Origin: a virus
Lineage: Duplodnaviria; Caudoviricetes
Direction: 5' to 3' (one strand)
Virus record (IMG/VR): IMGVR_UViG_3300028888_000047
Span: 128,001 to 192,000 of that record
Length of the DNA stretch: 64,000 nucleotides
A program made the translations under genes and the position numbers. The notes beneath the pieces are model-generated. The model was given only the letters and a program-made list of their open reading frames with translations. It made no database searches and was not told the origin of the DNA. Numbering within the stretch: the first letter of the stretch is position 1; each line of letters starts with the position of its first letter. Shown here in pieces: positions 26,832 through 45,655 of this stretch.

Positions 26832-26846
26832 AAAATTGTCTTTTTG

Positions 26847-26923
26847 TGACCCTAGTAGGATTCGAACCCACGATGAAAAATCGGTTTAGAAGCGACCGCA
26901 TTCGACCACTCTGCCATAGGGCC
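26847..26923 (-). tRNA. Amber suppressor tRNA (anticodon CUA)
   Basis: GGCCCTA/TAGGGTC-A73; anticodon arm GTCGC-TTCTAAA-CCGAT (CTA at 26889-26887); T-arm GTGGG-TTCGAAT-CCTAC. Confidence 0.75.
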
Positions 26924-27547: not shown

Positions 27548-27744
27548 AAATTCTAGTATAATTATTTTTTTTGGCTTGGTTTTCGCCAGTGTTTTAAGCA
27601 ATTTATGTAAACTAAACATGTTGATGCACTTTCAGCACCATCATACCCACTTGCCTATGGGCGTATTATACTAGAATTTATATTTGGACTACGTATCCTC
27701 TTCAGCTACCAATGTTGGTCAGTAATCTACCAAAAACTATTCAT
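27548..27744 (-). promoter_or_regulatory. Amber-containing leader uORF plus sequestering hairpin (putative translational attenuator)
   Basis: ATG 27744: MNSFW*ITDQHW*LKRIRSPNINSSIIRP* (all three stops TAG); perfect IR 27665-27679 / 27548-27562. Confidence 0.6.
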
Positions 27745-27767
27745 AACTAATAAATATTAAATTATTA

Positions 27768-27843
27768 TGGGGGCAGTGAGGGAATCAAACCCACGTAAAC
27801 AAGTGCCACAAACTTGCGCCTAAGTCTCTCGGCCAACTGTCCC
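27768..27843 (-). tRNA. tRNA-His(GTG), A19-U56 variant
   Basis: G-1 present; CAAGT-TTGTGGC-ACTTG; T-loop TTTGATT. Confidence 0.88.
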
Positions 27844-28362: not shown

Positions 28363-28365
28363 TTG

Positions 28366-28447
28366 TTGCGGGGGTGAGATTTGCACTCACGAACCACATG
28401 GGACCGGCTTATGAGACCGGCGAATTTGACTACTTTTCTACCCCGCT
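28366..28447 (-). tRNA. tRNA-Met(CAT), initiator-like (1:72 mismatch), extended variable region
   Basis: AGCGGGG/CCCCGCA; CCGGT-CTCATAA-GCCGG; T-loop TGCAAAT. Confidence 0.82.
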
Positions 28448-31892: not shown

Positions 31893-32657
31893 TTATATTT
31901 TATCTATGTATTCAACTAATTCTTTTTTCCTCCAAGGTAAATTATTCCTTTCACACCATTTTTGAATCGATTTATCAGACACTCCGTATTTTTTTCCTAC
32001 TTTACCGAATGTTTTTAACTCTTTAAAACTGTCAATAAACTCGTCTTTATTAAGGTTTTCTAATTTTCCTCCTTTACTTTCTACGTATTCTATTCCATTT
32101 TTTTTCAAAAATCTTTTAAGTGTTGTCAGCCCTACTTTATATTTTTTGGATATTTCCTTTTTTGATAGTTTGTTATTTATGTCTTCTTTAATATCTTCTA
32201 CATTTAATTTATTCTTTATTATGAATTTACTTTGTTTTTTTTCTTTTACATTTTTATTTTCGAAATAAACTATACTTCTTTCAATTTCTTCTTGTTCTTT
32301 TTTTGCCCTAACATCTTCTCGTTCTTTAGCATGTAATTCTCTATGGCAATTGGCGCATATTAAAACGCATTTATCTGCTTCCTTTTTTAATTTTTCTAAA
32401 CTTCTTGTATCACCAGCAATACCAAATTCTTTTTCATTAGGGTCAAGATGATGAAATTCCAGTGCGTCAATACACTTGTCATACCCGCATATTTCGCATT
32501 TTCCTCCCTTGTATTCTACAAGCCTAATTTTATTTCTTCTTCTAATGTCTAATACTGCTTCTTTTCTACATTCTTTGCACTTATAACTTCCGTTTTGAAG
32601 TAAAACGTGCTCAGTAACACCATGCCTAGGGCATTCTCTCATTATTGTTCTACTCAT
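31893..32657 (-). CDS. HNH homing-type endonuclease with C-terminal HTH repeats
   Basis: CEICGY...LEFHH...ICANCHRELH; inserted in the tRNA array. Confidence 0.85.
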   Translation of the reverse strand: MSRTIMRECPRHGVTEHVLLQNGSYKCKECRKEAVLDIRRRNKIRLVEYKGGKCEICGYDKCIDALEFHHLDPNEKEFGIAGDTRSLEKLKKEADKCVLICANCHRELHAKEREDVRAKKEQEEIERSIVYFENKNVKEKKQSKFIIKNKLNVEDIKEDINNKLSKKEISKKYKVGLTTLKRFLKKNGIEYVESKGGKLENLNKDEFIDSFKELKTFGKVGKKYGVSDKSIQKWCERNNLPWRKKELVEYIDKI

Positions 32658-32722
32658 AATAATTAATCTTTTATTATAAATATAGCAATAAGTCCAAAAA
32701 ATTAAATAATTTTGTTAATTTG

Positions 32723-32794
32723 CGCCTGGTGAGAATTTCGAAATCCCGACCCGCATGTTAACAGCATGCCGCTCTGCCTCTGAGCTAACCAGAC
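32723..32794 (-). tRNA. tRNA-Asn(GTT)
   Basis: GCATG-CTGTTAA-CATGC. Confidence 0.9.
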
Positions 32795-32798
32795 TTTA

Positions 32799-32825
32799 TG
32801 CTCTAACCAACTGAGCTACGTTCCA
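32799..32825 (-). pseudogene. Orphan tRNA 5' half
   Basis: GGAACGTAGCTCAGTTGGTTAGAGCAT with no continuation. Confidence 0.6.
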
Positions 32826-32884
32826 ATTATTCATATTCTTGTGCAAAGATACAAAAAATATTTTTAAAAAACAAATTTTTTTAG

Positions 32885-33172
32885 TTAAAAATTGTTAACC
32901 CATCTGTTACTTATTTCTGCCCAAAAGTTATAACCTTGTGGCGTTTCAGCCCACTCAAAAGAATACTTAAGTATACATCTTTTGTCTTTTATTCTTTCGC
33001 ACAAATCTTGTAAACTATTACCTACATATTTATTGAATTTATTAACATAAGTTTGATTACACCAACCTTTTCTTAATTTGGATTGTATATAAAAGTTTTT
33101 TCTGAACTGCGAATAAACGCCACTTTCTTTTAAAAACCTTTTAAGGCTTTTACAAATTAAATTTTCTTTCAT
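32885..33172 (-). CDS. 'KRFLKE' paralog family protein
   Basis: LKRFLKESGVY...FEWAETPQGYNFW. Confidence 0.7.
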   Translation of the reverse strand: MKENLICKSLKRFLKESGVYSQFRKNFYIQSKLRKGWCNQTYVNKFNKYVGNSLQDLCERIKDKRCILKYSFEWAETPQGYNFWAEISNRWVNNF

Positions 33173-33275
33173 ACAGCAAGTCCAGTACCTTCAATGTTAG
33201 TAATTTCCACTTTTGTTCCATCTGCTGATGATGTAATGATTTTTTTATCTTTCTTTTTCATAGCTTATAGGAATT

Positions 33276-33497
33276 AAAAAAAGCTGCTGAAAACTTTTTT
33301 AGGAGTTCATCAACAGCTTGGCGTTTATAGTGAAGTAAGTGCATTTATTATATTCATATACTTACAAATTCCCAATGCTGTTTTTGAACGTTATTATTAA
33401 AATCTACGGCTGATACAGACATAATATCACTGTTGCATTTACTTGTAGCAAACGCAGCATTAATAATGGATGTGATATGTTTAAAATTCTGTGCCAT
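33276..33497 (-). promoter_or_regulatory. Leader-peptide attenuator A (47-aa uORF 33497-33354, antiterminator, terminator)
   Basis: Terminator AAGCTGTTGATGAACT...AGTTTTCAGCAGCTT-T5; the uORF 3' end GTTCA..AACAGC.TTGG pairs with the terminator 5' arm. Confidence 0.72.
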
Positions 33498-33587
33498 AAT
33501 TTTTTATAAAAAAATTTTATTTGTTTATAATTATTAATTAATTTTCAAAAAACAGTATTTTTCAATAAAAAAATACAAAAAATATTT

Positions 33588-34511
33588 TTATTTTCCAACA
33601 ATCAACAACTCATGTGAAGTCTTGATATTGTCTTTATCGTAATCTCTTTCTGTTCTTGTTTTGCCTATTCTTGTTTCTCCTTGACCCATTGTATATTGCC
33701 AATGAACCTCGTGTATCTCAAAATCCTTATAAGCCTCTCTTACCATTGAACAATCATTATATGAAAGAATGAAACCACCTTTATGTTCGTGCAATAATTT
33801 GCAAAGTAACTCGTGGTTAAATCCATTGTGATGAATTGGAAAGTTCCTCATGGGATATATTCCCTTAAACATCTTGCTGTCTGCACATTCATCCAACACA
33901 TAAGGAGGGTCAAGATAAAGAAATTCTCCTTGATTCTCAGGTATACTTTCCTCAAATCCTTTGCAATATACTCTTAGATTTGGTAAATGGAAATTTTTAA
34001 CCTTTTCAATAGTTGAGTTATATTTCTTCTCTGATTGATATATTGATGACATCCATCCCAAAAAACCCGGTCCATATGACAATTGCATATTGTAATAGTA
34101 ATAAACAGCAGCGTCTATTGGGTCTAATTTACCATCATATCCATCAGTTTTATTCCAATGTTCTTTCAGTATGTTTTTAACCCTCTCATATTCTTCTTTG
34201 GTTGGAGGCATCGCTGACAGACGTTTGTATAACTCTTCGCCATTAACTGTTTGCTGCTGCCAATAGTTAACCAACAAATCAAAAACATCATACGCAACAA
34301 CCTCAAGCCCCAACTCTTTTGCCAATGCAATTTCAACTGAACCGCCTCCTATAAAAGGGCTTACAACCTTTTTTACGTCTTTAGGTAAATGTTCTGTTAT
34401 TAATCCGACTGCAAGTGATTTACCCCCTGCATATCTTAATGGACTGCCATTATATCTTTTATAATTACCATTCTTTCCCTTTAACAGTTTCTGTAACTCT
34501 TCAATTTGCAT
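33588..34511 (-). CDS. Dam-like DNA adenine methyltransferase
   Basis: YAGGKS, SPFIGGG, DPPY. Confidence 0.92.
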   Translation of the reverse strand: MQIEELQKLLKGKNGNYKRYNGSPLRYAGGKSLAVGLITEHLPKDVKKVVSPFIGGGSVEIALAKELGLEVVAYDVFDLLVNYWQQQTVNGEELYKRLSAMPPTKEEYERVKNILKEHWNKTDGYDGKLDPIDAAVYYYYNMQLSYGPGFLGWMSSIYQSEKKYNSTIEKVKNFHLPNLRVYCKGFEESIPENQGEFLYLDPPYVLDECADSKMFKGIYPMRNFPIHHNGFNHELLCKLLHEHKGGFILSYNDCSMVREAYKDFEIHEVHWQYTMGQGETRIGKTRTERDYDKDNIKTSHELLIVGK

Positions 34512-34555
34512 AACTCATTCATTCATACTTTCGATTTAAGTTGTTTCTTTTGTTT

Positions 34556-34882
34556 TCAATCAGCAAAAGAAACTTGCGCTACAACGGCATTATCATCTGT
34601 GTAATCGACTATTTTCACAATGTGTTCCACTTCATACGCTTTAGGTGCGTTATATGGTAAAACAACACCCATTAAATATATCTTACCGTTGTATGTGTAT
34701 TTATCAACATTACCTGAAGTTATTACTTTATGGCCACTATTTAACATTGTGGTAAACGATATTCTATCGCCTTCAATAGCTTCAAATAACTTTGTTGATT
34801 TATTGTATAATTTGTTGTCCTTAACAACCAAATCTTTTTCAAGAATCTCTAATTCTTTACCTGTGTTTGTTTTTATTATCAT
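34556..34882 (-). CDS. Hypothetical protein
   Basis: ORF track. Confidence 0.6.
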   Translation of the reverse strand: MIIKTNTGKELEILEKDLVVKDNKLYNKSTKLFEAIEGDRISFTTMLNSGHKVITSGNVDKYTYNGKIYLMGVVLPYNAPKAYEVEHIVKIVDYTDDNAVVAQVSFAD

Positions 34883-43505: not shown

Positions 43506-43620
43506 AAGGAGTCATTTTAAACCCGATAGTGTTAGATTCGAACCAACGACCTCTTGGTAAAATCCAAGGCTCTAACCAACTGAGCTAACTCCCGCAGTAA
43601 ATTTTGCTGTTAGACTCCTT
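43506..43620 (-). ncRNA. ACAGCAA-stem RNA #10 enclosing a whole tRNA-like cloverleaf with a 6-nt anticodon loop
   Basis: AAGGAGTC-TAACAGCAA...GACTCCTT; D-arm, CTTGG-ATTTTA-CCAAG, T-arm GTTGG-TTCGAAT-CTAAC. Confidence 0.82.
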
Positions 43621-45467: not shown

Positions 45468-45655
45468 AAAAAGGTGAATAATCGCGTAGATTATCCACCT
45501 TCATTGTTCTAATATCATGAAAACACACTTAGTATGAGATACATATCAGGATAATCTACTTAAAATGAACAGTATGGTTCTTCTCCGAAAGCATATTCGC
45601 CCTCGTAGCCGCCGTAAACCGGTTCATAAGTATAATTAAATGATATGTTTTGCAT
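45468..45655 (-). promoter_or_regulatory. Leader-peptide attenuator B (31-aa uORF 45655-45560, antiterminator, terminator)
   Basis: GTAGATTATCC right after the stop is the perfect complement of GGATAATCTAC in the terminator AAGGTGGATAATC-TACGC-GATTATTCACCTT-TTT. Confidence 0.75.

Follow-up and report, generated by a model that had tools for sequence, protein, structure and literature searches.

A putative leader-peptide attenuator located before a block of tRNA genes in a jumbo phage

Main finding

In this study, a small open reading frame (ORF) of 47 codons, lying between two blocks of tRNA genes in a phage genome of 317 kb, was found to be coupled to a predicted terminator/antiterminator RNA switch and to be written, ahead of the antiterminator strand, almost only in amino acids whose tRNA genes lie downstream. 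The unit is conserved in at least 26 jumbo-phage contigs and 34 protein clusters. It is inferred to act as a ribosome-mediated attenuator which adds transcription into the downstream tRNA block when those codons are read slowly. Literature searches found no published description of attenuators before phage tRNA genes.

The window analyzed is a stretch of 64,000 nucleotides, bases 128001-192000 of a single 317,464-bp virus contig with 32% G+C. Genes are preceded by a repeated motif that fits the Bacteroidota promoter type (TTTG-N19-21-TAnnTTTG), often directly following a hairpin and T-run; at least a dozen near-identical cassettes occur in the genome (e.g., window 2799, 13074, 15402, and 49597, minus strand) in which a GC-containing hairpin and a T8 run overlap the -33/-7 promoter elements, each acting as a terminator and the next promoter in one unit. 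The window holds 28 tRNA genes and a tmRNA, all on the minus strand. The features of the leader unit and its surroundings, all on the minus strand, are as follows.

33521..33557: conserved upstream motif holding a 10-bp palindrome, about 25-60 nt before the ATG; it could be a promoter, an operator or a 5'UTR element; conserved in all aligned copies and occurring only once in the 317-kb genome.
33354..33497: leader ORF, 47 codons plus a TGA stop; codons 2-35 use the restricted alphabet.
33436..33456: hairpin H1 inside the ORF, about codons 15-21, overlapping the conserved S-K-[W/C/R] codons.
33372..33389: strand B, the 5' strand of the antiterminator, codons 37-42 with the core ACAGC.
33326..33342: 17-nt linker between the stop codon and the terminator.
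33305..33321: strand D, the 5' arm of the terminator, shared by both alternative helices.
33276..33304: loop with a conserved A-run (33295-33304), 3' arm E (33283-33294) and U-tract (33276-33282).
33169..33261: ORF30, a 30-codon ORF 20 nt after the U-tract, squeezed between the U-tract and the next gene, which it overlaps by ATGA; present only in the subclade of the window, L010, L011, and L023 (L numbers designate related contigs carrying the unit).
32885..33172: ORF95-family gene of unknown function, the first gene that read-through would reach in clade A; homologous genes follow the terminator in L001, L008, L009, L015, L023, and L031, and it matches only PHROGs of unknown function.
32844..32875: consensus host-type promoter of the downstream tRNA block (TTTG-N20-TAnnTTTG).
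32722..32794: tRNA-Asn(GTT), the first gene of the downstream tRNA block, which runs on to 27769 and beyond.

Composition of the leader and comparison with the sequence-only reading

The observation made in a sequence-only reading of this DNA was confirmed. The 47-aa ORF exists as described, and 39 of its 47 residues fall in N/S/K/F/V/I/A/M/D/H, compared with 56.5% in the 323 long ORFs of the phage (binomial 1.2e-4). It contains no G, P, Y, R or L, which make up 25% of the background. This is not an effect of AT-richness, which that reading had raised as a caveat: only 35 of 68,721 47-aa windows of real proteins lack those five residues, and among 728 small ORFs of 35-70 aa in the genome, this is the only one that lacks them. 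Only 1 of 72,274 36-aa proteome windows lacks E, P, G, L and R. The downstream tRNA genes, from Asn at 32794 through His at 27769, and the second promoter noted near 32842 are also as claimed. One detail was wrong: the stretch after codon 42 does not pair with the sequence just before the 5' arm, but forms a small local hairpin with the start of the linker, and only in the subclade of the window.

The proposal that the leader polls the tRNA pool and induces the matching tRNA block is partly supported. Of the conditions named beforehand as able to refute it, a composition no different from background and a lack of conservation of the ORF and of the antiterminator pairing were both examined, and neither was observed. 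The match to the downstream block is stronger than that reading could see, since it holds family-wide and, for Ile, at codon level. Some specifics do not generalize: the absence of G, P, Y, R and L holds only for the part of the leader before the antiterminator strand, the tail of most relatives is rich in G, L, E, Q and R, and the Asn run occurs only in this subclade, where it sits at a place at which a stalled ribosome would cover the antiterminator strand. Sensing of tRNA supply and induction of the tRNA block remain inferences.

Conservation of the unit

BLAST of 32600-34600 against deposited phages returned only tRNA-Asn matches and no relative. A sequence search found four small homologs, whose contigs, together with two exact-pattern scans of viral contigs, gave 21 distinct copies in contigs of up to 412 kb. 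A profile search of 1.8 billion proteins gave 36 hits, 34 of them small proteins of 36-66 aa, from which five more DNA copies were obtained. Every copy has the same plan: the conserved upstream motif, an ATG followed by 38-48 codons, a spacer of 3-49 nt, the 17-nt linker, and the hairpin with a T-run. The linker is essentially identical in the 26 copies, with a 2-nt insertion in L001 and L015 and a different first base in L081 and L097.

The 26 copies, all with an ATG at the same place in 32% G+C DNA, differ in ORF length only by multiples of three, while the terminator loop varies by 1-2 nt, and dN/dS is 0.26-0.67 in most pairs; translation of the ORF is inferred from this pattern. The same 1-2 nt differences, which fall in the A-run, and the missing ATG in many copies rule out ORF28 (33258-33344) as a gene. 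No family in Pfam or PHROGs matches the peptide, and its AlphaFold2 model has low confidence (pLDDT 60.8, pTM 0.28), too low to use.

The predicted RNA switch

The predicted intrinsic terminator has a stem of 10 + 4-5 bp followed by T6-8. Across copies, 93.5% of cells are paired, compared with 22-59% when the partner is slid, and there are one-sided GU/AU changes and one two-sided change. A sigma-70 and terminator pattern scan was uninformative, because counts did not exceed those of shuffles and the hairpin loop is too long for its rule.

Pairing of codons 37-42 with strand D is the minimum-free-energy (MFE) structure of 33268-33400, at -26.2 kcal/mol against -17.1 +/- 2.9 for shuffles (z -3.2), and it persists in the 258-nt fold; in this antiterminator form, the A-run pairs with the U-tract. 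Among homologs, the MFE toggles between the two forms, 10 against 11, as a bistable switch should do. The B:D duplex is -16 to -22 kcal/mol in 18 of 18 copies, always below the mean of nulls that keep the peptide but redraw synonymous codons (individual p 0.017-0.17, 10 of 18 below 0.05). The six-pair core is paired in 23 of 23 copies, with an AU/GU/GC series at one pair. In L097, strand D changed U to C, strand E changed A to G, and strand B changed CAG to CGG (Gln to Arg), all at the same pair, and L101 and L102 carry the G.U intermediate. L099 keeps ACAGC in another reading frame, and the Gln codon in the core is CAG in 20 of 20 copies, although the genome uses CAG for 25% of Gln codons.

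Hairpin H1 is present in the RNAalifold consensus, with 3 pairs changed on both sides; Ser codon 20 is AGT in 19 of 19 Ser-bearing copies of the 21 aligned (AGC in L097), although only 23% of Ser codons in the genome are AGT. No conserved partner of B that would serve as an anti-antiterminator was found upstream, and the partners differ between copies; some described attenuators also lack this element, and its absence was not considered disqualifying.

Position among the tRNA genes

In every locus with flanking sequence, the unit lies after tRNA-Arg and before a block starting with Asn (clade A) or with Phe, Asp or Thr (clade B). Tabulated over 18 loci, genes for Gly, Leu, Pro, Glu, Gln and Ile(TAT) are always upstream, with Arg upstream in 14 loci and downstream in 1; genes for Asp, Phe, Asn, Thr, Ala, Lys and Val are always downstream, with Ser 11:1 and Ile(GAT) 4:1 downstream. 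In the subclade of the window, a D12-class adenine methylase gene (33588-34511, minus) is inserted between tRNA-Arg(ACG) and the unit, whereas in L008 and L015 the unit follows the tRNA directly.

A consensus promoter lies at the place equivalent to 32844-32875 in 17 of the 18 relatives scanned, that is, in every phage where one could be scanned. It is about 30-40 nt after the U-tract in all but one clade B copy (about 825 nt in L028, behind an endonuclease-like gene) and 330-400 nt after it in clade A. Read-through could therefore only add to independent transcription of the tRNA block. Only the ORF95-family gene of clade A, whose ATG lies about 20 nt after the U-tract, would depend on read-through; in clade B, the next gene differs.

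Within the array, a stretch resembling the 5' half of a tRNA (acceptor strand and D-arm) lies at 32803-32828 (minus), between the block promoter and tRNA-Asn, and an HNH-type endonuclease gene with helix-turn-helix motifs lies at 31893-32657 (minus), related endonuclease genes following the leader unit in some clade B phages. A tRNA-like gene at 43523-43594 (minus), read by ARAGORN with a two-base anticodon, is conserved in the upstream block of several relatives, including L031 and L035. Repeated elements with a fixed 5' arm, an unpaired ACAGCAA and a matching 3' arm around variable cargo (window 19530, 28018, 28162, 29344, 29798, 43610, and 43978, minus) are a different family, unrelated to the leader unit. 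A second leader, leader B (45560-45655, minus), is a 31-aa ORF rich in Tyr, Glu and Gly before tRNA-Glu and the first tRNA block; it is also conserved, with a recognizable homolog in L031 (12869-12952). A mini-ORF with in-frame TAG codons (about 27680-27745, minus) lies upstream of two small genes and the CTA-anticodon tRNA at 26846-26923.

The leader alphabet

In 33 cluster representatives, residues 2-29 hold 1.3% E+P+G+L+R, compared with 27.3% in the proteome and 34.3% in the last 12 residues. In the 21-copy alignment, 112 of 122 distinct column/residue states before strand B lie in N, S, K, F, V, I, A, M, D, H and T, against 27 of 54 in the tail. Many substitutions have been explored by the family, but the conservative ones of I/V to L, D to E, F to Y and K to R are missing. 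The frequent letters are the amino acids whose tRNA genes are always downstream and the excluded ones those always upstream. At codon level, which peptide function cannot explain, Ile before B is ATT 52, ATC 24 and ATA 1, and in the tail ATA 17 and ATT 4, whereas the genome uses ATA for 42% of Ile codons; the ATA-reading tRNA gene is in the upstream block. His appears in the leader where tRNA-His is downstream (window, L001, L015, and L097) and is absent where it is upstream (L035/L030 and L064).

There is no tandem run of one regulatory codon as in classical leaders; the Asn run of this subclade abuts B. Exceptions to the alphabet exist: Arg CGT stands at position 21 in four clade A copies, two Arg occur in L095, ATA and Tyr occur in L097, Ile(GAT) is upstream in L064, and Cys and Gln occur in the leader of the window although no such phage tRNA gene was found. 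In addition, all copies belong to one phage family, and the counts are thus not independent events.

Proposed mechanism

By the reading we favor, a ribosome running smoothly through the leader would occupy B and then the stop codon while D and E are being made, and the terminator would form. A ribosome held up anywhere in the first ~30 codons would leave B free to capture D, and RNA polymerase would read on. Because those codons are written almost only for Asn, Ser, Thr, Ile(ATT/ATC), Ala, Phe, Lys, Val and Asp, and avoid Gly, Leu, Arg, Pro, Glu, Gln and Ile(ATA), the switch would report slow decoding by the downstream set and add transcription from the upstream unit into ORF95 and the downstream tRNA block, on top of that block's own promoter. 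The tail may use any codon in this view, because stalling there would mask B. The stop codon lies exactly 20 nt after the core in 19 of 26 copies, but the geometry is ambiguous, since a ribosome at the stop codon would not cover the B core. The model needs neither the specific peptide motif that is kept, S-K-[W/C/R]-[N/S]-[D/N], nor the invariant linker.

What the sequence comparisons establish is an ORF evolving as a translated one, three strands able to form the switch, the conserved position and the codon alphabet; actual translation and expression, the ribosome logic, a response of termination to decoding speed, what is sensed, and the effect on tRNA levels are inferred. We put about 85% on a translated leader with a terminator/antiterminator switch and about 50% on the full reading that it reports decoding by the downstream tRNA set and feeds transcription into that block.

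A more speculative extension, which we consider unlikely although not excluded, is that the leader is a two-pool comparator: slow decoding of its first ~30 codons by downstream-block tRNAs would give read-through, and slow decoding of its tail, which lies over the antiterminator strand and uses upstream-block amino acids, would mask B and give termination. Together with leader B and the TAG-bearing leader before the suppressor tRNA, the phage would then run a tRNA-homeostasis circuit of codon-partitioned leaders, built from translated test genes, that balance its own tRNA blocks.

Alternative explanations

Several other explanations are possible, each considered less likely. The switch may be real but flipped by a trans-acting factor or the nascent peptide, with a protein or a pausing RNA polymerase recognizing the linker, or the S-K-[W/C/R]-[N/S]-[D/N] segment acting as an arrest peptide in response to some other signal; the alphabet would then reflect what the exit tunnel or the factor requires. 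This unlikely reading is favored by the linker being essentially invariant even where the hairpin co-varied and unpaired in both folds, by a peptide core conserved across clades sharing only about 20-30% identity, with codons fixed at synonymous sites and overlapping H1, and by the upstream motif being unique in the genome, which suggests special regulation. However, it does not explain why the excluded amino acids are just those whose tRNA genes lie upstream, nor why ATA is avoided while ATT and ATC are used; Trp of the motif is replaced by Cys or Arg in clade A, and no candidate factor was identified. Pairing of the S-K-W codons with the linker was no better than synonymous-codon nulls (p 0.16-0.78). 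The linker ends in the T7 core heptamer, which raised the possibility of a T7-like promoter, but the motif is single-copy; a search for a single-subunit RNA polymerase found nothing, as did its controls, and hence says nothing either way.

It is also unlikely, though possible, that this is an ordinary small protein gene with its own strong terminator, the peptide having a function of its own, the pairing serving mRNA folding or stability or being a by-product, and its location being plain synteny. Purifying selection on the ORF, the self-contained appearance of the unit in clade B (upstream motif, ORF, terminator, then the next promoter) and the synteny of the whole tRNA island across the family agree with this. 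Against it are the lack of any matching protein family, the low-confidence structure model, and a 28-residue stretch without L, E, G, P, Q or Y over 33 diverged clusters, which is unlike folded proteins; the Gln-to-Arg change tracking the hairpin, the frame-independent ACAGC and the avoidance of ATA are RNA- or codon-level constraints. Least likely, the terminated transcript of ~270 nt is itself the product, a small RNA, perhaps dual-function with its peptide, acting in trans through the linker or the hairpin loop, for which rnTrpL RNA and peTrpL peptide of Sinorhizobium are a precedent (PMC6614838, PMC7968998). The unit is single-copy, highly conserved and ends in a strong terminator, and the linker is invariant and single-stranded. 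However, no convincing target was found: the only 13-nt complement of the linker in the genome lies inside the coding region of a 231-aa gene, a -16 kcal/mol match to tRNA-Met 28365-28447 is not conserved in relatives, and no Rfam family matches. This reading also leaves the codon alphabet unexplained.

Significance and comparison with known systems

Phage tRNA arrays are usually treated as constitutively expressed helpers for codon usage or as counter-measures against tRNA-cleaving host defenses. A leader-peptide attenuator spelled in the codons of the tRNA block it precedes would mean that giant phages monitor decoding and adjust their own tRNA supply, extending the trp-operon principle from amino-acid genes to tRNA genes. 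The family offers a compact object of about 280 nt with natural compensatory variants, for which the model predicts that recoding the first 30 codons should change what the switch responds to, and a general signature for finding such leaders in other genomes, namely an ORF whose alphabet mirrors the neighboring tRNA genes and which overlaps a terminator-competing strand.

Similar to rnTrpL/peTrpL of Sinorhizobium meliloti (PMC6614838, PMC7968998), the terminated RNA and leader peptide could have functions of their own, which might account for the invariant linker and the peptide motif, although no trans target or partner was identified here. With TnaC/SecM-type arrest peptides, the unit shares a small leader with a conserved peptide segment and a conserved position of its stop codon relative to downstream RNA signals. 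The sequence resemblance to TnaC-like peptides is limited to the short S-K-W stretch, in which Trp is not conserved; no arrest has been shown, and termination here is intrinsic, whereas tna uses Rho. As in the pheM leader of the pheST operon, where a tRNA synthetase operon is attenuated according to tRNA-Phe charging, and in T-box riboswitches, expression of a component of the translation apparatus would be tied to the state of particular tRNAs through a terminator/antiterminator choice. However, pheM senses one tRNA, and T-boxes bind uncharged tRNA directly without translation; here there is no Stem I or T-box motif, no Rfam family reaches threshold (the best E-value in 33150-33650 is 1, to unrelated snoRNA models), and the products would be the tRNAs themselves.

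The multivalent attenuators of enterobacterial amino-acid operons (thrL, Thr+Ile; ilvL of ilvGMEDA, Ile+Leu+Val) and trpL, hisL and pheL likewise have a short translated leader followed by an intrinsic terminator, an alternative helix using a strand within or next to the leader, and a composition biased towards the amino acids that matter for the operon, with more than one amino acid sensed; that the bias has this role in the present unit, and that several amino acids are sensed, is inferred. The unit described here differs from these in that the downstream genes are tRNA genes plus a small gene of unknown function instead of biosynthetic enzymes, the bias is a 9-11-letter alphabet with exclusion of another set and not a run of one to three codons, no 1:2 anti-antiterminator was found, a promoter intervenes, the antiterminator strand lies inside the ORF upstream of the stop, and the element is carried by a phage.
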